DNA from: Nostoc sp. DedSLP01
GTDB lineage: Bacteria; Cyanobacteriota; Cyanobacteriia; Cyanobacteriales; Nostocaceae
Direction of reading: 5' to 3'
Assembly (NCBI GenBank): GCA_034530875.2
Contig: JAVRCJ020000014.1
Coordinates: 1-64,000 of the forward strand
Length of the DNA: 64,000 nt
A program made the position numbers and the translations under genes. Positions within the stretch are counted from its first letter, which is position 1. Every line of letters begins with the position of its first letter. Positions 13,542-25,436 of this stretch are shown here, piece after piece. The notes beneath the pieces are model-generated. The model had not been told where the DNA came from. It was given only the letters and a program-made list of their open reading frames with translations, and searched no databases.

Positions 13542-14213
13542 TTAATCAGGTCTAAATAATCCAAATACAGGAGCAAGAATTATTCCGAAAACAAAACCAC
13601 CGATGTGCGCCCAGTAGGCAACTCCACCAGTTTCCACACTCATACGAGCAGCGACTTGCAGACTTGCAAGACCGGAGAACACATTTTGTACAAAGAAAAG
13701 TCCAATTATTACTAGTGCTGGAATTCTGATGGTGGTGACAAAAAACCCCAAAAATATTAAAGTCATCACTCTAGCTTGGGGAAAGCGAATAATGTAGGCA
13801 CCTAAAACCCCAGAAATTGCACCACTTGCCCCTAAAGAAGGAATTTCAGAATTGATGCCAATAAACCACTGGCACAATGCAGCTAAAGCACCACATGCCA
13901 AATAAAAAATTAAATATTTAAGATGACCTAAACGATCTTCAATATTGTTACCAAAAACCCAGAGAAACAGCATATTTGAGATTAAGTGCCACCAACCGCC
14001 GTGTAAGAATTGCGAGGTGAATAATGTTATCCATTCTCCAGACAAATTGGAGGTTAACTCTCGAGGGATTACTGCATACCGATCTAAAAACAGATTCAAT
14101 TGTGCATTTGACAGGCTCACCTCGTGAAGAAAAACTAGAATATTCATACCAATTAACCCATAGGTGAAATACGGGGTAATTCGCGTAGGATTTTCATCGT
14201 AAAGAGGAAACAC
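13542..14213 (-). CDS. Rhomboid family intramembrane serine protease
   Basis: FLHGGWWHLISNM, GASGA (Ser) and WAHIGGF (His); GTG start after AGGA. Confidence 0.93.
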   Translation of the reverse strand: MFPLYDENPTRITPYFTYGLIGMNILVFLHEVSLSNAQLNLFLDRYAVIPRELTSNLSGEWITLFTSQFLHGGWWHLISNMLFLWVFGNNIEDRLGHLKYLIFYLACGALAALCQWFIGINSEIPSLGASGAISGVLGAYIIRFPQARVMTLIFLGFFVTTIRIPALVIIGLFFVQNVFSGLASLQVAARMSVETGGVAYWAHIGGFVFGIILAPVFGLFRPD

Positions 14214-14545
14214 AGGTGTTTTTCCTAAATTATTAACTAATTGCAATATAGCTTGTATGGCTAGCAGTTGTTGAGTTTAAGTATTTTGACTCACAGTAGC
14301 TCGGTAAAAATACAGCACGATTCACAATTCACAAGTCAGAATTGACAATTAGAATCGTCTGTGTACTCAACTTGGAAAGCTAGATGGTATAGCAATTGAA
14401 GAATTAGGATGATGAATTGACTGTAAAACAAAGATAACAACAGACTTTCAAGGCTATTGCCTCTTGCCTGCCATAACAAATTAATGCAAAATCCCACTCT
14501 TTTTAGGAGTGGGATAAGCTCAAAAATGAAAACTTTTGATAACTA

Positions 14546-15262
14546 CTATAACCAAGATTCCTCTGCGGATTTATCGCTAAATAAACCCAACACGGGGCCG
14601 AGAATTGCTCCAAAGATAAAGCCACCTGCATGGGCCCAGTAAGCAATACCGCCGCTTTCCATACCTATGTTGGTAGGTGTTTCGAGGCTGGCAAGTCCGT
14701 AGAAGGCTTGTTCGAGAAACCAAAATCCTAGAAAGAAATATGCCGGGACGCGGAAAGTGGGAAAGAAAAATCCTAAAGGCACAACGCCAATAACTTCAGC
14801 ATTGGGAAAACGGAGAATGTATGCTCCCATAACACCTGCGATCGCACCACTCGCCCCCAATGAAGGAATGCTAGAATTTTGACTGAAATACCACTGGGTC
14901 AATGAGGCTAAAACGCCGCAAGACAAATAAAATATCAAATATTTGATATGACCTAATTTATCTTCAACGTTGTTGCCAAAAATCCAGAGAAACAACATAT
15001 TGCCGCCTAAGTGCAGCAAACCGCCGTGCAAAAATTGTGAGGTAACTAAAGTAGCCCACTCTGGTACTGGTTGATTTACAGAAATGCCCCCAAAGCTCAA
15101 GGTAAGTTCTCGTGGAACTACAGCTGCAAGGTGTAAAAACCCATCTAATGCTCGTGGGGGAAGACTTGATTCATAAATAAATGCAAGCACGTTGAGAGCA
15201 ACTAGTGCATAAGTCACATAAGGGGTAATTTTTGTAGGATTATTATCTCTAATGGGAACCAC
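14546..15262 (-). CDS. Rhomboid family intramembrane serine protease (tandem paralog)
   Basis: FLHGGLLHLGGNM, GASGA and WAHAGGF. Confidence 0.93.
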   Translation of the reverse strand: MVPIRDNNPTKITPYVTYALVALNVLAFIYESSLPPRALDGFLHLAAVVPRELTLSFGGISVNQPVPEWATLVTSQFLHGGLLHLGGNMLFLWIFGNNVEDKLGHIKYLIFYLSCGVLASLTQWYFSQNSSIPSLGASGAIAGVMGAYILRFPNAEVIGVVPLGFFFPTFRVPAYFFLGFWFLEQAFYGLASLETPTNIGMESGGIAYWAHAGGFIFGAILGPVLGLFSDKSAEESWL

Positions 15263-15590
15263 AGGCGTTTTTCCTGATTCTAAAGCACAAGCTTTACGTT
15301 ACTGAATTTTGCAAGTAGTTTCTTCTACCTCGTGGATGGATTTTGCTTTAGATTTGAGATTGAGTGCTGATTAATCTTGGGCAAGAGATGGCGATCGCTT
15401 AAAACTCTTTGCTGACCTAGCACCACTGCCCAGAATTAAAAATGCTTTATTGTATAGCCTTTTGAAGAATTTTTCATGATATCTTAATCTCAGCCAGTCT
15501 ACTAGTAAGATTCATAATCATTACAGTACATTTTTCACAATATACAAAGCAGATTGCCAATAACCTACCTTGAGGCTAGCAAATGAAATT

Positions 15591-16526
15591 ATGCGGCCAG
15601 AATTATTTTTGATGCAGCAAGATGTTATACCGTTAATTGAGTCGCTGATTACATTTGCAATTATGTTTGGCAATGCTAGTGATCGCCTGACTGTTCTGCA
15701 AAACGCTAATATTGATAAAGCTTTCCTGAGCAGTCTAAATCTTAGTGATGAGCCTAGAAAATTTGCTCAACAGTTAGTCTCAAGATTTAGAACTTATCGT
15801 GTTTCCAATAACAAATTGGACTATCACCCTATGATAAAACTGCTCACACACCTGTGTGAAATTGCGCCTAACTACAATGAACTAATCAATGATGTACCTT
15901 TATTCAGCAGACTAGCTCAACAGGGCCAAGAAAACTTAAAAGCTTTGGTTGCTCGTAATAGCGTTGCCAGTATTATTATGGACTCACCTAAAGGTAGTCA
16001 TATTGGAACAGGTGTGTTAATCCGCAAAAGTTGGCTACTCACTTGTAATCATATTTTTAGCAAAAGTCAGGCAAAAACAGCTTGGGCACGGTTTAATTAC
16101 ATCGAAGGAAGCCACAATTTAGATTCAGATGTCTTTGAACTCGATTTAGCAACACTGATACGCTCCAGTCAACTTGATTATGCTGTGGCTAGAGTCAAAA
16201 ATGTGCCACAACAACAAAATGTTACAGCTAGCGATGCTCTATTAGATAGTGGGCAGAAAATTCGTTTGATTCACCATCCGCAAGGACAACATGCAGTCAT
16301 TTCAGAGCTAGGTGAGATTGTGCAAGTGGGAGCAGATTACATCGACCATAATATCAGCACTGAGGATGGTTCATCTGGTGCGCCAATCTTCAATTGTGAT
16401 TGGCAATTAGTGGCTATACATCGAGGAAATTTAGGTATAGGTGTGGGGCGATCGCAAGAGCCAGGAACAACCTCTGGTTTTCCCGTTTGTGCCTTCTGGC
16501 AAAATATTCAAACTCAACTGTTTTAA
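15591..16526 (+). CDS. Trypsin-like serine peptidase with N-terminal helical effector-associated-like domain
   Basis: GTGVLI..LLTCNH (His), LDYA (Asp), IHHPQG and GSSGAPIF (Ser); ~110-aa helical N-terminus; start uncertain (TTG 15570 possible). Confidence 0.88.
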   Translation: MRPELFLMQQDVIPLIESLITFAIMFGNASDRLTVLQNANIDKAFLSSLNLSDEPRKFAQQLVSRFRTYRVSNNKLDYHPMIKLLTHLCEIAPNYNELINDVPLFSRLAQQGQENLKALVARNSVASIIMDSPKGSHIGTGVLIRKSWLLTCNHIFSKSQAKTAWARFNYIEGSHNLDSDVFELDLATLIRSSQLDYAVARVKNVPQQQNVTASDALLDSGQKIRLIHHPQGQHAVISELGEIVQVGADYIDHNISTEDGSSGAPIFNCDWQLVAIHRGNLGIGVGRSQEPGTTSGFPVCAFWQNIQTQLF

Positions 16527-16546
16527 TATTATTTAGAAATTGATTT

Positions 16547-17653
16547 ATGAACTTGCCATTTTCAGAATTGTTCAGACGAAACTCCCCAAGGTATCAAGCC
16601 CAGTTTCTAGAAGAATATTGCGTTGATGTAGATTATGATGCTACACCAATCAAAGCAGGAGAAGCTTATTGTCGCCTATGGTTAGTAGAGATGCATTTAG
16701 CTAAAGACGTGCATTGGTTGAGGGAAAGATATCCAGTAGTTCATGCTGCTATTCGCTTTAATCATGATGGTAAATCTTTAACAGTTCCCTATCTTGCCGA
16801 ACCAGGACATTTAAAAGAACTGACAAAAGATAATTTAAATAAAGTAATTCAATATAACTATCCGCTTACACCTCTATTTCCTTTCAACAACGGTTTAGTA
16901 GAGTTGCAAGCAGGTTTATTCAGTATGGTCAATAGCGATCCTATTGGTAAATTTATTAAAACAATGGGAAGGTTTTCGGAGTTATTGCCAGTACCGAATA
17001 TCTCATCTTTACTGAAGATAGTAGAACCTATATATCGAGGAATTGAAGACTTAATTGGTGCTGGAGAAGGTCATTTAGAGTTAGGTTATCAGCAAACATT
17101 TTCGGCAGCAGGTGGAGGAGGTAACAATGATTTGAGAGCAGGTTATTTAGTCGCAATTTTAGCTGAAGAAAACCAAATTAATCCAGATACACTGTGTATC
17201 GTAAATGATAGTCTAAAAATCGTTCATTATAAGCTAAAAGAACCTGGATTTGGAAGATCCAAAGATTTCATTAGGGATGCCAAACCACTGGAAGGCTACA
17301 GCTATATGCTATTCCGTATAGAAAAACGTACATCTCAAGATTGGGAGTCGCTAACCCAAATTAAGGAATTGGTGAATAAAGCTCAGGATGCTGTATTTGA
17401 TGGTAATTATGACAAAGCAAAAAATCTTCTTTTGCCTGCAATTAAAATAGCAATTTATTCTAGCCCTGATTTGATAAAGGTTGACCGTGAAAACATGGTA
17501 CTGAAAATTCAAGATTATTTGAGTGAGATTGGTTTACAAGGTGCTAGCACACAAAAGCGATCGCTCTTTTCAATTATGCAGCGTCCTCTACCAGTTTTAG
17601 ATGCTCAGACAGAGGCAGAATTGACAGCGTTAGAACAAATTTTTGTACAGTAA
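16547..17653 (+). CDS. Uncharacterised 368-aa protein in the MoxR-vWA operon
   Basis: Long ORF 20 bp after the protease, co-oriented; no family recognised. Confidence 0.8.
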   Translation: MNLPFSELFRRNSPRYQAQFLEEYCVDVDYDATPIKAGEAYCRLWLVEMHLAKDVHWLRERYPVVHAAIRFNHDGKSLTVPYLAEPGHLKELTKDNLNKVIQYNYPLTPLFPFNNGLVELQAGLFSMVNSDPIGKFIKTMGRFSELLPVPNISSLLKIVEPIYRGIEDLIGAGEGHLELGYQQTFSAAGGGGNNDLRAGYLVAILAEENQINPDTLCIVNDSLKIVHYKLKEPGFGRSKDFIRDAKPLEGYSYMLFRIEKRTSQDWESLTQIKELVNKAQDAVFDGNYDKAKNLLLPAIKIAIYSSPDLIKVDRENMVLKIQDYLSEIGLQGASTQKRSLFSIMQRPLPVLDAQTEAELTALEQIFVQ

Positions 17654-17705
17654 AGTATACCCACAATTACTATTCATTGGATTTTACTCCTTCTGAAACT
17701 GATTT

Positions 17706-18782
17706 ATGACGTCGATCAATCATAAACTTTCTGCTGAGTTGCAGAAAGTTTTAATTAACAATACTTACTTTCAAGCTTTAAATAATAATTCTAGACAAGA
17801 CCTATTAGTTAACTGTGGCTTAGGCAAATACTGTCATAAAATTATTTTAGATAAGAGATTACCTGATTTTATTTCTAGCATTTTTAGTCAATTTATCCAA
17901 ATTAATATTGACGAAAAACCAGCATTAATTATTTTTTTAGAACATATATTTATTTTAAGTGATGTGAATTTTGATTTCTCATCTCAAGAACAACAATTAA
18001 TTAAGCTTTTTATTGAACAATTAGAAAGAAATAATAGATATAATAACTTGCTAACTGAAGGTAGGAATACACCTACTCCAGTTCAACAACCGATCAAAGT
18101 CGATCGGGGTATAATCGTTAACTACGACTTAGAAATTCTGATGAGTAAATTCAGACAAAAAGTCAGGCATGAAGGAGCATTTGCTTTTGCTGTTAAAGGC
18201 GAGCATCGAATTTTGGAGGAGTATATTATCGAGCGAATACAGAGAGAATTGAAATTGTTAACTGGTCGTCCAAATACAAAATTAGAAATACGGCTTTGCC
18301 CAGAAAGCATTTCAACTTCTTCAAGTATAAAAAATAAATTTTTAAATAAATATAATTATCAAGACTTTCCTGAATTATTTAATACAGAATGCAATCCAGA
18401 TGTTTTACTAATTATCTGGAATCACAATGATTCTCAGGAATATAGGAATTTATTAGCTTCATCATCTCAATCTTTTTGGCAAGATATTTTACCTTCTTTA
18501 TTACCGTGTCTAATTAATAAAAGTCGCTGCTTTGTCATAATTTGGGCGAATGTTGGTAAATATTTATTAAGCGGATTTACTGTCTTAAAAACTCCAAATA
18601 ATTTTCAATTGGAAGATTTAGAACCGTGGTTTCGTGGCCAGCTAAGAATGATAGGAATTGAAGCTACGCAGATCGAAAAATACCTCAAGCGGCTGCGAAG
18701 TCAATGTGGAGATTTAACAACAACTTATTTAGAAATGAAAGACATCCTCCAAGAGTTAGGAGGTACTAGGCGTTATGGATAA
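17706..18782 (+). CDS. EAD-like N-terminus plus inactive STAND (iSTAND)-like NTPase-fold protein
   Basis: Helical N-terminus, then NYD..F.. FAFAVKGE strand with no GKT; sits directly before the MoxR gene with an 8-bp overlap. Confidence 0.6.
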   Translation: MTSINHKLSAELQKVLINNTYFQALNNNSRQDLLVNCGLGKYCHKIILDKRLPDFISSIFSQFIQINIDEKPALIIFLEHIFILSDVNFDFSSQEQQLIKLFIEQLERNNRYNNLLTEGRNTPTPVQQPIKVDRGIIVNYDLEILMSKFRQKVRHEGAFAFAVKGEHRILEEYIIERIQRELKLLTGRPNTKLEIRLCPESISTSSSIKNKFLNKYNYQDFPELFNTECNPDVLLIIWNHNDSQEYRNLLASSSQSFWQDILPSLLPCLINKSRCFVIIWANVGKYLLSGFTVLKTPNNFQLEDLEPWFRGQLRMIGIEATQIEKYLKRLRSQCGDLTTTYLEMKDILQELGGTRRYG

Positions 18783-19746
18783 ATTAGCAAGAATTTACAA
18801 AGGTGAGGGTAAACGCCGCTATAAGCAATTTACGGATGCATGGATGCATGAAGAACCTTATATTGCCTCTAAATCCTTAACTGATGCTGTTAACACCGCC
18901 CTTTATCTGCGTCGTCCTTTATTGCTTGAAGGCGATCCAGGTTGCGGTAAAACTCGTTTAGCTTATGCAGTTGCTTATGAATTAGGTTATCCCCTTCATA
19001 CTTGCTACATCCGTTCTTCGAGTCGAGCGCAAGATTTACTATATGATTATGATGCTTTGAGGCGATTATATGATATTCAAGAAGGAAAAGTAGCAAATAA
19101 TCAAAATCAAGCGGCATCAAGAGAGAAGTATGTCACTTTAGGAGAATTAGGAAAAGCGATCGCACAGTCCCAAAATGATATTCCCTCAGTTGTACTCATC
19201 GATGAAATTGATAAAGCCGATATTGATTTTCCCAATGACTTGTTACTGGAACTGGATAGATTGCAATTTCAAGTCAAAGAAGTGCCGGAAATGAAGTATG
19301 ATGCTTTAAAGGGTAAAACACGTCAGGAACGGCGAGACTGTTTACCACTAATTATCATCACTAGCAACCGAGAGAAAGAATTGCCACAACCTTTTCTCCG
19401 GCGTTGTTTATTCTACTATCTTGAATTTCCTAATCAAGAAACACTGAAACAAATTCTCCAGAGCCATTTTCGCAACCAGATTACGCCCATATTTGAAGTA
19501 GCGCTGAAAAAATTTTGGGATCTGCGGTATGAGTTAAAAAGTTGGCGAAAAATCCCTGGAACCAGTGAATTTTTGGATTGGGTAGCAATTTTAGAGCAAA
19601 AACAGCAGACTAACCAACTAAATGCCGAAAAATTGGCAAGTACCAATGTAGTATATTTACCTCATTTAGAGACGCTGGTGAAAACTCAAAGCGATCGCAA
19701 CGCCCTTAATAGCAGGAGAAAAAATCTGGACAAGAAGAATGGCTAA
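18775..19746 (+). CDS. MoxR family AAA+ ATPase
   Basis: RPLLLEGDPGCGKT Walker A, VVLIDEIDKADIDFPNDLL Walker B and ITSNREKELP.PFLRRC. Confidence 0.95.
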   Translation: MDKLARIYKGEGKRRYKQFTDAWMHEEPYIASKSLTDAVNTALYLRRPLLLEGDPGCGKTRLAYAVAYELGYPLHTCYIRSSSRAQDLLYDYDALRRLYDIQEGKVANNQNQAASREKYVTLGELGKAIAQSQNDIPSVVLIDEIDKADIDFPNDLLLELDRLQFQVKEVPEMKYDALKGKTRQERRDCLPLIIITSNREKELPQPFLRRCLFYYLEFPNQETLKQILQSHFRNQITPIFEVALKKFWDLRYELKSWRKIPGTSEFLDWVAILEQKQQTNQLNAEKLASTNVVYLPHLETLVKTQSDRNALNSRRKNLDKKNG

Positions 19747-20896
19747 ACTAGATTTCTTACTGCTTCAAGTTTTTGAACGGTTACGCAAGCAGGGCGTACC
19801 GCTGGGAGTATCAGATTATCTTACAGTGATCGAGGCAATGCAAAGCGGAGTAGGGCTAGAAGATCCTGACAGTTTCAAAGGATTATTTCGCTTACTTTGG
19901 GCAAAGTCGCGGGAAGATCAAGGACTGTTCGATTTGGCTTTTGCAGAGTTAGTAGAACCCGAACTGCAAAATACTACTGTACCTGATGACTTAAATATTC
20001 TTACTCCCACTATTACACATGGCGAAAAGTTTTTTGAAAGTTTACCAGAACGTTTTATTTCTCAATTCCAAACTGCAAAAGATATTTCGCAACTAGGTAA
20101 CAATCTGCCAGAATCTGAGCTAGTTATGAAATCACCACAGCAGTGGAAGAAACTACCTCTAAAGCTTGTAAAAAAGCCATTTGTACTGAATACTAAGCCA
20201 ATAGAAAAACATCATTATTACCAGTTAACAACCCGGTTGCCTATCAGTCGGCGAGAGATGGCAGGAGTCTGGCGACATCTACGCCGTCCTCAACGAGTAG
20301 GTGTCCTTGAAGAGTTAGATGTGGAAGCTACAATTAGCAATCTGTGTAGTTCTGGCTTATTGCTACAACCCGTGTTGAGGCCCCGTCGTCGCAATCAAGC
20401 TCAATTAGTGGTACTAGTAGATCGGCAGGGTTCAATGGCTCCCTTTGCTTCTTTAATTGAAGCAACAATTGAAAGTATCTTGCGAGGCGGTTTACTTGGC
20501 AAAACCAGACTTTACTATTTTCACGATTGCCCAGAAAATCTGCTTTATCAACGCCCTAACTTGACTAATGCTCTACCTTTAGAAACAATATTAAATGAGG
20601 GGGCTAAAGGCAACAGTGTATTGATTATTGGTGATGCAGGCGCAGCCCGCGGCTATTACGATCTCCAGCGAGTAACAGAAACCAAATTATTTCTCCAAAC
20701 CCTTAGTACCTACACTTACCTCTATGCTTGGCTCAACCCCATGCCGAAATCTCGTTGGGTAGCAACAACAGCAGAAGATATTGCCTGTATGATACCGATG
20801 TTTCCTTTAGACCGAGAAGGTTTGAATGATGCAGTAAACATTTTACGAGGGCATCCATTTCCTCCGGGAGTTGGTATCGATGAGCAAAATTATTGA
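19739..20896 (+). CDS. vWA domain protein (CoxE-like partner of MoxR)
   Basis: ELDVEATI, VVLVDRQGSM (MIDAS-like), YYFHDCP, IIGDAGAARG and WLNPMP. Confidence 0.9.
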   Translation: MAKLDFLLLQVFERLRKQGVPLGVSDYLTVIEAMQSGVGLEDPDSFKGLFRLLWAKSREDQGLFDLAFAELVEPELQNTTVPDDLNILTPTITHGEKFFESLPERFISQFQTAKDISQLGNNLPESELVMKSPQQWKKLPLKLVKKPFVLNTKPIEKHHYYQLTTRLPISRREMAGVWRHLRRPQRVGVLEELDVEATISNLCSSGLLLQPVLRPRRRNQAQLVVLVDRQGSMAPFASLIEATIESILRGGLLGKTRLYYFHDCPENLLYQRPNLTNALPLETILNEGAKGNSVLIIGDAGAARGYYDLQRVTETKLFLQTLSTYTYLYAWLNPMPKSRWVATTAEDIACMIPMFPLDREGLNDAVNILRGHPFPPGVGIDEQNY

Positions 20897-21974
20897 AGAG
20901 ATTATTAAAGCTCCCAGTGCGGTTAGAGAACAATGGCTTTCTCCCGATTTAGCAGTACGGGAAATATTGGCATTTGAACGAAGCTTTGGTTCCAAGCATT
21001 TGATACTTGCTTGCCATGCTGCCTTGCCGTTGATTTTAACACCAGAACTCTTGAATTTAATCCACATCAATTTTCTGGATGATAAACAAATTCCTTGGTT
21101 TGCTGAAGTTGATTTTCTGCTCTCGTCTTTATGTCGTCCGATTGATGATGGTGTCTATGAAGTCGAACCATCAATCAGAGAAGTATTGCTTTTAGAATTA
21201 GAAAATAAGTTTGGTTTAGAACGCCCGTTTAGTTTAGCTAATTTTTTACAGTTCTACTTGGATGAAAAATCTGGTTTAAAGCAAAGTTCAGAAGTAACTC
21301 GTACTCAACTGTGGATTGCACAAGCTTATATTGACCCAGATAAAATAATTATTGAACTGACTAAGTTACTGGAGTCAAGTCTATCTCAAAGTAATGATAT
21401 TTTCAGCCTTTCGCAGAAAATACAAGTTACTAGAATGCTGGAAATTTTAACAGATGCGCTTCAGCATACAAATCAGTGGAATGAATATCAATATTTGATC
21501 AGTAACAGCAGAGTTGTGGCAAAGATGCTTTATGGAGATGAGCAAACTTTAAAACGAAAAATTAGGGAAGAACAAGCAAAAGGAAATATAGATAATAGTA
21601 CATTAAAGCTACTCTCACTTTCTATACTCAAAACATTAGAAATTAACCAAAACCCTGATGAATATGAAATAAATGCTTTATTTAAAAAAATTGAAACTAT
21701 ATTTTTAGCAAATCCTGAAAATTGGAATTTAAATACATTATATAAAGACTTATCATCAGCTAAACAAATATTGACTCGTGGCAAAGAAAAGGAATTAACA
21801 CCATTTGAAAAGCAATGTTTACATGTGATGCTTTTCCTTGATAACGAACGTAATTATTATGGATATTTGTCACGGAAGGAAATTAAACAAATAGAGCAAA
21901 TATTAAATAATTCTAATCTCAATCTCTATCGATATATTGAACAAATTACAAAAAAATGGCGAGAAACACATTAA
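20880..21974 (+). CDS. MoxR-vWA system effector, N-terminal part (helical adaptor plus start of an HTH-like domain)
   Basis: LACHAALPLILTPELL..I..NF..PW.AE.DFLLS.LC motif of proteins following cyanobacterial vWA genes; WNLNTLYKDLSSAK..LTP.EK..LYRY domain cut at the A7 run. Confidence 0.75.
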   Translation: MSKIIEEIIKAPSAVREQWLSPDLAVREILAFERSFGSKHLILACHAALPLILTPELLNLIHINFLDDKQIPWFAEVDFLLSSLCRPIDDGVYEVEPSIREVLLLELENKFGLERPFSLANFLQFYLDEKSGLKQSSEVTRTQLWIAQAYIDPDKIIIELTKLLESSLSQSNDIFSLSQKIQVTRMLEILTDALQHTNQWNEYQYLISNSRVVAKMLYGDEQTLKRKIREEQAKGNIDNSTLKLLSLSILKTLEINQNPDEYEINALFKKIETIFLANPENWNLNTLYKDLSSAKQILTRGKEKELTPFEKQCLHVMLFLDNERNYYGYLSRKEIKQIEQILNNSNLNLYRYIEQITKKWRETH

Positions 21975-22459
21975 ATAACTGGAGAGAAGCAACTGAGCTA
22001 CTCAAGAAAGCTGGTTATCAAGAAAAAGGAAGTCATTTTAGTACTTTACGTACTAAAATTACTGATGCTAATTTACTCATAAAGACTCTCCGAGATTTGG
22101 GGATTGCTGTCAAAACTGATGCAGAAGTTCGTGGCTACAATGGTCAAAGGGTTCATGCTGACGTTGTTGCTGTTCTTGAAGGAAATTATGACATAGGTTG
22201 GGTACTAAATTCTGATGGTAGTTTTGATTTAATAGTAGATATATGGGGTATTTCTAATAAGTACGATCAAACTGAACTAATTAACAGTATGAATCAGAGA
22301 TATGCTGTTAATAAAGCTTTGGCAGAGGCTAAAAATAGAGCATTTATAAAACCTAAATGTCCAAGATGTAGCTCAACTCAAATTGTTAAATCTGGATATC
22401 ATAACTATAAGAAAACTTATAAGTGTCAGAGTTGCGGTAATGAATTTTTTGAAGCTTAA
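21956..22459 (+). CDS. DUF1257/Ycf35-like domain plus C-terminal CxxC..CxxC zinc ribbon; probably the -1 frame continuation of 20880..21974
   Basis: SHFSTLRTKITD..LRDLGI.VKT.A.VRGYNGQRV..D.VAVLEG.YD.GW..N.DGSFDLI.D.WG matches Ycf35; CPRCSS..IVKSG..YKCQSCG. Confidence 0.8.
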   Translation: MARNTLNNWREATELLKKAGYQEKGSHFSTLRTKITDANLLIKTLRDLGIAVKTDAEVRGYNGQRVHADVVAVLEGNYDIGWVLNSDGSFDLIVDIWGISNKYDQTELINSMNQRYAVNKALAEAKNRAFIKPKCPRCSSTQIVKSGYHNYKKTYKCQSCGNEFFEA

Positions 22460-22625
22460 TTTTTTACTTAAAACTAAATCAGTTTCAAAAGGATAAAAAA
22501 TGTAATCTTTACTTTCTTACTGTGGTGTAATTAAGTAAAATAGTGTGATTCACTGCTTTGGCTAAGTTTTTATTTTCTCATGTGCAGAATTAATATATTA
22601 CTTAGCTGGGGCCAATTTTTTAGAC

Positions 22626-24314: not shown

Positions 24315-24675
24315 CTAAGGCAGTGGACGCTGACGTAACTGTGTACGCTCTACAACTGTAAAATTTCCTTCTAATGATATGCTTTTTATACTCAGCAAGC
24401 GTAGCAAGTCTTCAGCAGGTCCCTCTGGTGTAGCCGGAAAATAACGGAATATATACAACACCAACTGGCGATGGCATTCGCAGGCGGTAAATTAACTCAC
24501 CATAATCTCGGTCAAATGTCAGAATGATTCGCCTCTCACGAAGTGCGCGTGTCAAAACTTCAGAATCTTCTGCACCTGCTGCATCTTCACTTCCATAGGC
24601 TACATCGTAACCACCAGAACGCAAATATCTAAGACTCATCACAGGAAAATTTTCATTTGCTAAAAACAGCATCAT
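24315..24675 (-). pseudogene. DUF5615 PIN-like toxin with +1 frameshift near 24450
   Basis: FLANENFP, ILTFDRDYGEL; removing one base after ..GVVY gives FRYFPATPEGPAEDLLRLLSIKSISLEGNFTVVERTQLRQRPLP*. Confidence 0.8.
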
Positions 24676-24917
24676 CTCGTCTTAGACAAAAGCGGTAGGG
24701 TATACAAAGATTCTTCACGCATACACTCTGCTGTAAAAGCAAATACTGCCCTTAGTGCTTCTTTTGTCAAGGTAGGATAGTTTTCTAGCACTTGTTGTTC
24801 TGTCCATCCCGCAGCAAACAAACCCAACAAGAACTCTACAGATAAACGAGTTCCTTTCACAGTCGGCTTACCCAGCAAAATTTTGGGGTCTGAATGAATG
24901 TACTGTTGCCAGTCCAT
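24672..24917 (-). CDS. DUF433 family antitoxin
   Basis: IHSDPKILLGKPTVKGTRLSV..GWT..VLENYPTL. Confidence 0.92.
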   Translation of the reverse strand: MDWQQYIHSDPKILLGKPTVKGTRLSVEFLLGLFAAGWTEQQVLENYPTLTKEALRAVFAFTAECMREESLYTLPLLSKTR

Positions 24918-25009
24918 AATTTTTACTCCGACAAAGTTACAACCATTTTTGCACAGGATGATTTTTGTTTGGTTGCATAAAGAGGAGATGGGATGAAGAT
25001 AAGGGAGAT

Positions 25010-25105
25010 GCGATCTCGCTCATCGCAAGTCACTACTACATCTGGATAAAAAAACTTTTGCCCCGGTTCTACCTGCACCTTCACATCTACAATGTATACT
25101 TCACT
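25010..25105 (-). pseudogene. Internal fragment of a Uma2 (DUF820) endonuclease gene
   Basis: VYIVDVKVQV..FFYPDVVVTCDERDR motif only. Confidence 0.7.
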
Positions 25106-25107
25106 GG

Positions 25108-25209
25108 TCAACTAGGGAATGCTTGTGCTAATTCAGTACGTTGTTCTGCATAGTATTGGACAGCTTCAGCATACTCAGCAAGTGCTTCAGGATGAAATAT
25201 ATACTTCAT
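25108..25209 (-). pseudogene. Truncated RelE/ParE family toxin (33 aa)
   Basis: MKYIFHPEALAEYAEAVQYYAEQRTELAQAF then PS*; ATG overlaps the antitoxin stop. Confidence 0.75.
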
Positions 25210-25436
25210 TACTCAAGCAGCTGCCTTACTTGAGCTAATGCTTCATCCCCCGGAATTCCTTGCAAAGAACTGTTTCGGATCTCGTCACGGCGTCTTTTTG
25301 CCTCATTTTTCCAAGCGGTCTCAATTTTTGGATCGATATCGAATTCTAAACTTTCCACTAGCTTTTCTGCCAAAAACGCTCTTGATGCACTAGGTAGAGA
25401 TAAAAGCTCTTGTGTCAGCTGCTCAATCGATCGCAT
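25209..25436 (-). CDS. Addiction module antitoxin component
   Basis: LSLP..RAFLAEKLVESL..IETAW..EAKRR..I..IPGDE. Confidence 0.85.
   Translation of the reverse strand: MRSIEQLTQELLSLPSASRAFLAEKLVESLEFDIDPKIETAWKNEAKRRRDEIRNSSLQGIPGDEALAQVRQLLE

Follow-up and report, generated by a model that had tools for sequence, protein, structure and literature searches.

An iSTAND2-type MoxR-vWA ternary cassette in Nostoc sp. DedSLP01 joins a portable protease-partner pair to a split effector with a Ycf35 domain

The ternary systems of multicellular bacteria, built around a MoxR ATPase and a von Willebrand factor A (vWA) protein, stand as predictions, with testing confined to a related actinobacterial MoxR-vWA pathway, as far as the accessible part of that report goes (10.64898/2026.09.08.750141). 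In the predicted mechanism a third component is the sensor, MoxR and vWA perform remodeling, contacts between effector-associated domains (EADs) provide recruitment, proteolysis provides release, and captured host modules act as decoys (PMC7159879). The iSTAND2 systems, defined computationally, comprise an inactive STAND protein fused to EAD1, EAD8 or bDLD3, a MoxR, a vWA, a separate gene joining vWA-L to an effector, and an EAD-fused trypsin (PMC8195603). Our statements on PMC7159879, PMC8195603 and the preprint PMC12642450 refer to their open text and source data; some of their supplements and figures, and subscription papers, lie outside this scope. Here we analyze a cassette of seven open reading frames (ORF1 to ORF7) in Nostoc sp. 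DedSLP01, within positions 1 to 64,000 of contig JAVRCJ020000014.1 (the window, 64,000 nucleotides). It is almost certainly an iSTAND2-type MoxR-vWA ternary system, in which a core of known architecture is combined with a protease-partner pair that recurs beside other sensors and with an effector carrying a Ycf35 domain.

The seven ORFs lie on the + strand at 15591-16526, 16547-17653, 17706-18782, 18775-19746, 19739-20896, 20880-21974 and 21956-22459 and encode proteins of 311, 368, 358, 323, 385, 364 and 167 aa. The original prediction, made from the sequence before any search, had described co-oriented, mostly AT-rich ORFs, and its layout was reproduced: gaps of 20 and 52 bp separate ORF1-2 and ORF2-3, overlaps of 8, 8 and 17 bp follow, and we add a further 19-bp overlap of ORF6 and ORF7. 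The GC content of the cassette is 36.6% (31-43% for single ORFs) compared to 40.9% for the 8.57-Mb genome.

ORF1 (15591-16526) combines an EAD8 adaptor (aa 9-122; Pfam EAD8, E 9e-16) with a trypsin-like serine protease (aa 139-276; Trypsin_2, E 7e-17), and its triad H154/D196/S262 is unchanged in 49/49 homologs. ORF4 (18775-19746) is a MoxR AAA+ ATPase with intact Walker A (aa 53-60) and Walker B motifs (AAA_5 above cut-off), and ORF5 (19739-20896) is a stand-alone CoxE-type vWA protein (VWA_CoxE, E 2e-10; SAV_2336_NTERM, E 1e-9, below cut-off) whose DxxGS motif is visible in the translation. The catalytic motifs are therefore intact, as had been claimed, and the Pfam matches to EAD8, Trypsin_2, AAA_5 and VWA_CoxE bear out a MoxR-vWA ternary conflict-type system with an EAD and a peptidase.

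ORF3 (17706-18782) itself has no Pfam match, and its assignment comes from scans of orthologs, hhalign and the Atlas. EAD8 (PF19961) was matched in the ORF3-like protein of 4 of the 9 orthologous genes scanned, and the ORF3 N-terminus aligned with the EAD8 of ORF1 (hhalign 95%, E 3e-8); these two EAD8-type domains are the only ones found in the genome. Its C-terminal part gave feature matches of 0.91-0.95 to iSTAND clusters in the Atlas and AAA+/STAND-like models at TM 0.57-0.75, and the Walker A/B consensus is absent from the family alignment. ORF3 would thus be a divergent EAD8 joined to iSTAND2, an inactive STAND NTPase and the predicted sensor or scaffold. As in the iSTAND2 systems, this EAD-bearing inactive STAND is the 5' third component, MoxR is followed by a stand-alone vWA gene, the nearby trypsin is fused to the same EAD as the iSTAND2, and the host, Nostoc calcicola-like and from a genus of filamentous habit, is multicellular.

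Two related classes were considered and set aside. PF19995, the classic iSTAND family, was unmatched by ORF3 or 8 orthologs, and hhalign to a true iSTAND gave 6.7%; the same scans matched PF19995 in a protein of locus L024 (E 5e-28). For a VMAP ternary system there was no VMAP Pfam match at E<=1, and the effector is encoded on its own gene rather than fused to the vWA. The cassette shares MoxR, a CoxE-type vWA and an EAD-fused inactive STAND with the classic iSTAND systems (PMC7159879) but differs from them in the missing PF19995 match of ORF3 and in an effector that is not fused to the vWA. The iSTAND label of the original prediction consequently stands for an inactive STAND third component and is corrected to iSTAND2, and of the Pfam matches it had expected EAD8, AAA_5, VWA_CoxE and DUF1257 were obtained, PF19995 was not.

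The ternary architecture is already catalogued, since the same gene order, with the extra gene as '?', stands in the PMC8195603 source data. The entry for Nostoc sphaeroides reads 'EAD8+Trypsin_2->?->EAD8->iSTAND2->MoxR->vWA->vWA-L+??', with a similar one for Microcystis, and for ORF2 and ORF6 the N. sphaeroides relatives are P0002 and P0331, whose accession numbers flank that entry. Figure 2-source data 1 also lists a 291-aa partial iSTAND2 of N. calcicola with vWA-L+HTH downstream; the 90% cluster of ORF3 includes a 291-aa partial protein of N. calcicola FACHB-389, which agrees with this entry in organism, length and partial flag. The list thus includes apparent orthologs, with ORF2 given as '?' and the effector as 'HTH' or '??'. 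EAD8-trypsin, EAD8-iSTAND2, MoxR, stand-alone vWA, separate vWA-L+effector gene and a multicellular cyanobacterial host are all shared, and the claim of a new variant of the ternary architecture falls. The Ycf35 and Zn-ribbon continuation, the conserved fission of the effector gene and the independent spread of ORF1-ORF2 are features of the cassette not given for iSTAND2 in PMC8195603.

The rhomboid and SDR genes that flank the cassette directly adjoin in 20/20 loci of other congeneric genomes with a close SDR match. By blastn against these empty-site loci, homology stops near 15350 and restarts at 22618, which gives approximate limits of 15350 to 22617 (+ strand) for an insert of ~7.3 kb. The proposed insertion between rhomboid and SDR genes without an integrase is thereby supported, domain scans having found no integrase domain among the seven ORFs. 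The same seven genes occupy the same site in G150 and in L007 (Nostoc calcicola), the latter with synteny and 90-98% protein identity. The spread is patchy: 3 of the 127 congeneric genomes, including the one with the window, have a full-length ORF6 ortholog. Each cassette ORF is single-copy in the genome, except for the Ycf35 part of ORF7 (2 chromosomal relatives) and its Zn ribbon (1). HIP1 sites were confirmed at 16448, 17557, 19156 and 19691, that is 4 per 6,869 bp against 0.03 predicted by base composition and a genome mean of 8.9 per 10 kb. A promoter and terminator scan remained at chance level (22 vs 24.8 and 4 vs 4.5).

Given a MoxR and CoxE-type vWA core, and a Ycf35 domain 72% identical to a host copy that lies just after a 503-aa AAA-type gene, we considered whether the cassette might be a housekeeping or stress chaperone (CoxD/CoxE-like) for Ycf35/Ycf46 physiology. 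Its presence in 3/127 congeners, the empty site in 20/20 loci, the exchange of effectors among relatives, the EAD8 adaptors and the recurrence of ORF1-2 beside NACHT/STAND and Hhe-like genes make this highly improbable. Universal presence with an invariant effector, named at the outset as grounds for abandoning a conflict role, was not what we found. We consider a defense or cell-death role probable for the cassette; it is likely by analogy to the iSTAND2 family, for which it is itself a prediction.

ORF1 and ORF2 (16547-17653) recur together outside the ternary context. With patterns from the window's clade we found 59 ORF2 loci, many of them from related Nostoc. EAD8-trypsin lies directly upstream of ORF2 in 50 of them, and L051 and L058 add two further pairs on closer reading. 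Among the loci lacking an adjacent ORF1, three are contig ends or fragments, the protease of L042 is 6 kb off, none is visible in L049, and in L061 and L062 the place of EAD8-trypsin is taken by a CHAT protease and a large NTPase. The MoxR core is downstream of the pair in only 9/59 loci, so ORF2 is assigned to the protease and not to the ternary system. A DUF4011 helicase-restriction endonuclease (REase; PADLOC PDC-S37, Hhe-like) is encoded upstream in 24/59 loci, in others EAD8-fused NACHT, NB-ARC, nSTAND1 or TIR genes lie downstream, and in L024 the pair precedes a classic iSTAND system. ORF2 thus keeps its protease, as a neighbor or as a fusion partner, while the sensor beside the pair changes. 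The original prediction had singled out the 368-aa gene as an undescribed part; it is unnamed and without a profile match, but it was catalogued as '?' and is not specific to the ternary system.

The 59-locus set is more biased than two further samples. CHAT, C14, C25 or S8 protease domains are present on 11 of 31 long ORF2 relatives, including all 11 of at least 734 aa. When 800 genomes were drawn evenly from two other phyla, 4 new ORF2 loci emerged, three with caspase-like and/or EAD1-trypsin neighbors and one with nSTAND1 and no protease among the genes scanned.

Several arrangements of these loci were also recorded. In 31 of the 50 adjacent ORF1-ORF2 pairs, from different cyanobacterial genera, the spacer (16527-16546 in the window) measures exactly 20 bp. 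In Nostocales ORF2 occurs most often in a three-gene unit (L015:143-7241 and 23 similar, e.g., L023, L026, L033 and L047) of the DUF4011 helicase-REase, a protein of ~630 aa in which EAD8 and trypsin follow an N-terminal domain of 320 aa that carries no annotation, and an ORF2 homolog; this unit is a candidate for a separate defense system. A run of CHAT protease, a 1,600-2,600-aa NTPase-like gene, an ORF2 homolog, a caspase (C14) and EAD1-trypsin is whole in L182:5063-17371 and L183:1-12747 and partial in L184:594-12828, L061, L062, L159 and L163. Read from gene order, it may be a three-protease cascade around the ORF2 family. In L057:8583-10079 an ORF2 homolog on a Nostoc plasmid is interrupted by ~1.5 kb.

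To the conserved linkage we can add a predicted contact. The ORF1-ORF2 complex model scored 0.72 compared to 0.02 for the best of 3 controls, with runs agreeing in at least 62% of contacts and a partner pLDDT of at least 73; 116/157 solved and 2/215 mismatched pairs attain the mark, counts that hold only roughly here. Trees of the 59 pairs correlated (Spearman 0.75, 0/999 permutations, a value without a species-tree control), and 17 of 30 supported splits conflict between the ORF1 and ORF2 trees. ORF1 is predicted, by the complex model, to bind ORF2. On the ORF1 side the modeled interface involves trypsin-domain residues 157, 191-194, 217-221, 245-248 and 284-288; on the ORF2 side it involves the conserved 263-270 (D265-W266-E267) and 337-345 (S339-F341) and the tip of a hairpin. 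The ORF2 C-terminus (aa 330-368; 17534-17650, + strand) has an invariant Leu330, a variable loop at 332-338 and a conserved helix (S339-L340) that lies in the interface predicted with the protease, and Leu330 with the adjacent loop may be a cleavage site.

Proteases in other systems are paired with such partners, which can prove to be death effectors in latent form; activation by a protease has been tested for MBL, a hydrolase, Pepco and EACC1 (PMC12642450); the modules named in that text are MBL, alpha/beta-hydrolase, Pepco (Trypco1/2), EACC1, CATASP, MPE, gasdermin, Csx30, CalpT and PCaspase. ORF1-ORF2 resembles them as a protease-partner pair moved among sensors (STAND, helicase), and ORF2, like MBL, is linked to the same three classes of trypsin-, caspase- and subtilisin-like proteases. 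It differs in having no match to the families named in that text and in its predicted C2-like fold, and its effector role is put forward by analogy to them.

ORF2 may instead be a regulator (an inhibitor, scaffold or membrane anchor) of the same iSTAND2 system, which would keep the protease inactive, or at the membrane, before the sensor responds; the targets of the protease would then be host proteins or the vWA-L effector, in line with the proteolytic effector release modeled in PMC7159879. In favor of this, the modeled interface adjoins the active site and includes no catalytic residue; relatives of ORF2 are N-terminally fused to caspase-like and subtilisin proteases or stand within the multi-protease runs; and ORF2 is among the most conserved cassette genes, with ratios of nonsynonymous to synonymous substitution (dN/dS) of 0.14 and 0.27. 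C2 domains, moreover, are usually targeting modules. However, ORF2 is mostly the last co-oriented gene in the 24/59 loci with helicase-REase and trypsin, the position of a dedicated substrate, and it pairs with proteases of three unrelated folds, as the tested MBL effector does (PMC12642450), which is hard to explain for a specific inhibitor. We regard the regulator as rather unlikely. An effector role is the leading option, and that ORF2 is an effector activated by cleavage is close to an even call, somewhat on the lower side.

The fold of ORF2 was predicted with AlphaFold (pLDDT 87) and tentatively placed by fold searches as a C2-like beta-sandwich with an inserted hairpin and a C-terminal helical bundle and tail. 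The stretch aligned to C2 domains is aa 38-263 (16658-17335, + strand), and the amphipathic helical hairpin, from the model and its hydrophobicity, is aa 131-172 within the sandwich (16937-17062, + strand). This hairpin is the most hydrophobic stretch of the broad family, yet below transmembrane level. Identity to C2 domains (cPLA2, otoferlin, perforin, PI3K and syNOS) is 6-14%; the 45-residue hairpin insert and the helical bundle go beyond these domains. Profile comparison to PF00168 showed no similarity, a weak test with only 1-2 sequences on the C2 side, and Foldseek gave no PDB match at E<=0.001. Gasdermin, MACPF-domain and other pore-forming folds were not among the Foldseek matches listed for the model.

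By sequence, searches of Pfam, PADLOC, NCBIfam and PDB with ORF2 gave no usable match, and the Atlas returned unnamed clusters only. Pfam over 114 family members gave no consistent match (best E 0.008, in at most 2 members), and none over the ORF2 domain of 31 distant relatives. Named protease-partner families such as Trypco1/2 and EACC1 possess Pfam models; Trypco1/2, EACC1, CATASP, CATRA, MBL, alpha/beta-hydrolase and gasdermin had no profile match in those 114 members and 31 distant relatives or in PADLOC. The family comprises more than 1,000 clusters at 50% identity in several phyla. In the literature covered we found no account of ORF2 or of a C2-like defense effector, and an earlier naming is possible in the sources outside that scope.

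Pfam C2 occurs in 2/301 cyanobacterial genomes. Both are canonical C2 domains, at L171:1486-1860 and L172:1429-1803 (- strand), in 850-910-aa frames of genomes filed as cyanobacteria. Among viral structures the ORF2 model has a single significant match, BFVD A0A1V0SF49, an uncharacterized 323-aa Hokovirus protein (E 8e-7, TM 0.41-0.46), and one scan of viral contigs with the distant relative P0145 found no match.

ORF6 (20880-21974) begins with a vWA-L linker of ~230 aa, a label borrowed from the listed N. calcicola entry (PMC8195603), and continues as a helical domain up to its end. Because aa 1-230 are common to proteins with at least 10 kinds of C-terminal domain (subtilase, FGE-sulfatase, TPR, TIR/sigma54/nSTAND1, HEAT/S1, RelA-SpoT, kinase, NACHT and others), we conclude that a constant linker carries an exchangeable effector, on a separate gene adjacent to the vWA as in the iSTAND2 systems; a fixed core with a varying last gene had been anticipated. 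The structure model of ORF6 has a pLDDT of 45. No paralog of its helical domain was found in the genome or the fetched loci outside the Ycf35-type effectors, and 'HTH' is the label of PMC8195603 only. Among the relatives, P0279-P0306 (761 aa; one from Microcystis aeruginosa) have vWA-L fused to a full RelA/SpoT, in agreement with the Microcystis iSTAND2 entry of PMC8195603, and L013 and L014 have subtilase genes both upstream of the ternary cassette and as its effector.

ORF7 (21956-22459) consists of a 25-aa helical stretch, a Ycf35/DUF1257 domain (aa 26-130; E 7e-21) and a 4-Cys Zn ribbon (aa 134-164; IS1_IS1595_Zn above cut-off), so that the tail originally described as Ycf35 plus Zn ribbon is confirmed. 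Its first 25 aa are continuous with ORF6 in fused relatives. In L035 one 522-aa frame covers ORF6 and the Ycf35 part of ORF7, and P0270 and P0271 include the Zn ribbon as well. The fission point (21950-21974, + strand) comprises an A7 run, the ORF7 ATG (21956) in the -1 frame and the ORF6 stop (21972-21974), and the junction is 2 nt longer than in L035. The split is common to the cassette, L007, G150 and P0310 (P0331, maybe of the G150 lineage, was counted once). An assembly error was rejected on this recurrence and on contigs X4-X6, from three other studies and ~95% alike, which show no indel at the junction, all gaps lying elsewhere.

A decaying island, with ORF6/ORF7 as a broken effector gene and a partly inactive cassette, would account for a split where fused relatives run on without a linker, for ORF3 of G150 in two pieces and a split vWA in L014, and for a dN/dS of 0.33-0.62 in ORF5-7 (0.12-0.62 across the cassette), above the 0.09-0.16 of the flanking genes. 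However, the split point is identical in the cassette, L007, G150 and P0310, the catalytic motifs are all intact, and over a synonymous divergence of 0.36 ORF7 has kept both its open frame and its ATG. ORF7 is under selection, with dN/dS of 0.34 and 0.39 (binomial p 0.03 and 6e-4 against neutrality, from approximate site counts). Decay is thus distinctly improbable, and the original reading of a frameshift-split last gene holds for the split and not for recent damage. The G150 ORF3 ortholog lies in two frames (EAD8 159 aa, iSTAND2 223 aa; L096:6585-7744), and the start of the G150 vWA gene (L096:8695-8878) has an apparent ~180-bp duplication.

At the junction alone, in a reading otherwise compatible with the interpretation given here, programmed -1 frameshifting or transcriptional slippage at A-AAA-AAA might join ORF6 and ORF7 in a single protein. 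Both the window and L007 have the heptamer in the register that this requires, and natural fused forms exist; in G150, however, the run is interrupted (AAAAAGA) although split and ATG are preserved, so a conserved slippery site is unsupported, and five stand-alone helical, Ycf35 and Zn-ribbon proteins without vWA-L indicate that separate polypeptides are tolerated. We consider frameshifting improbable; the best fit is a stable fission of the gene, with the two products translationally coupled. The stand-alone proteins (P0343, P0351, P0352, P0354 and P0361; 292-300 aa) represent a second fission point.

The Ycf35 domain of ORF7 (aa 26-130) shares 72% identity with the host chromosomal ycf35 on contig C4, where the preceding 503-aa AAA-type gene is presumably ycf46. 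Of the 120 proteins listed, 18 carry a DUF1257 annotation, 4 of these with CHAT and 1 with TIR, so capture of this domain recurs. The cassette copy sits in the effector slot with the helical domain and Zn ribbon, and elsewhere the domain is fused to vWA-L, CHAT or TIR proteins. Repeated capture suggests a decoy, by analogy to the model of PMC7159879. We found no description of Ycf35 as an effector in the literature covered. In P0368, P0370, P0373, P0382 and P0374 this plastid-conserved domain is joined to CHAT proteases or TIR-containing proteins.

Taken as a whole, we moderately favor an iSTAND2-type counter-invader system of two joined modules in which ORF2 is acted on by the protease. In the first (ORF3-7), the EAD8-iSTAND2 protein would sense an invader, and a MoxR hexamer with its vWA co-chaperone would remodel the complex and license the variable effector tethered by vWA-L, here a helical domain, a captured Ycf35 and a Zn ribbon made as two translationally coupled polypeptides. 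In the second, the portable ORF1-2 pair, the EAD8 of ORF1 would dock on that of ORF3, and clustering would switch on the ORF1 protease, which would act on pre-bound ORF2. The cut would most likely fall in the C-terminal loop, at candidate Leu330, and free the C2-like sandwich, whose amphipathic hairpin may attack the membrane and kill or arrest the infected filament cell. It is a tentative and rather doubtful extension that ORF2 founds a new family of protease-activated, membrane-attacking C2-fold effectors, with the hairpin replacing the membrane-binding loop, plugged through EADs into MoxR-vWA, NACHT/STAND and helicase-nuclease sensors and trypsin, caspase or subtilisin proteases.

Two features of the surrounding window were also noted. 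Tandem rhomboid protease paralogs (~57% identical) lie at 13542-15262, in an order with the SDR gene that is kept across the genus. Small ORFs that by appearance only resemble toxin-antitoxin genes (87, 81, 62 and 75 aa, - strand) lie at 24412-25436, between a TPR gene and uvrB and 2 kb downstream of the cassette.

In the literature covered we met neither the Ycf35 effector nor this unnamed protease partner with its predicted C2-like fold; the ternary architecture was already known. The cassette offers a compact, intact ternary example with a defined empty site, and repeated capture of Ycf35 as an effector hints at the Ycf35/Ycf46 pair as a phage target. ORF2 is the weightier point: it represents a large unnamed family that accompanies many sensors and trails proteases of three unrelated folds, and a pattern of this kind had brought the death effectors MBL, Pepco and EACC1 to light. 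Should ORF2 prove to be C2-like and to be cleaved, a membrane-targeting fold usually seen as eukaryotic would join bacterial immunity, the ORF1-ORF2 pair would provide a two-gene readout of sensor activation that makes ternary systems testable, and the ORF2 family might be a bacterial counterpart of C2-guided lytic proteins.

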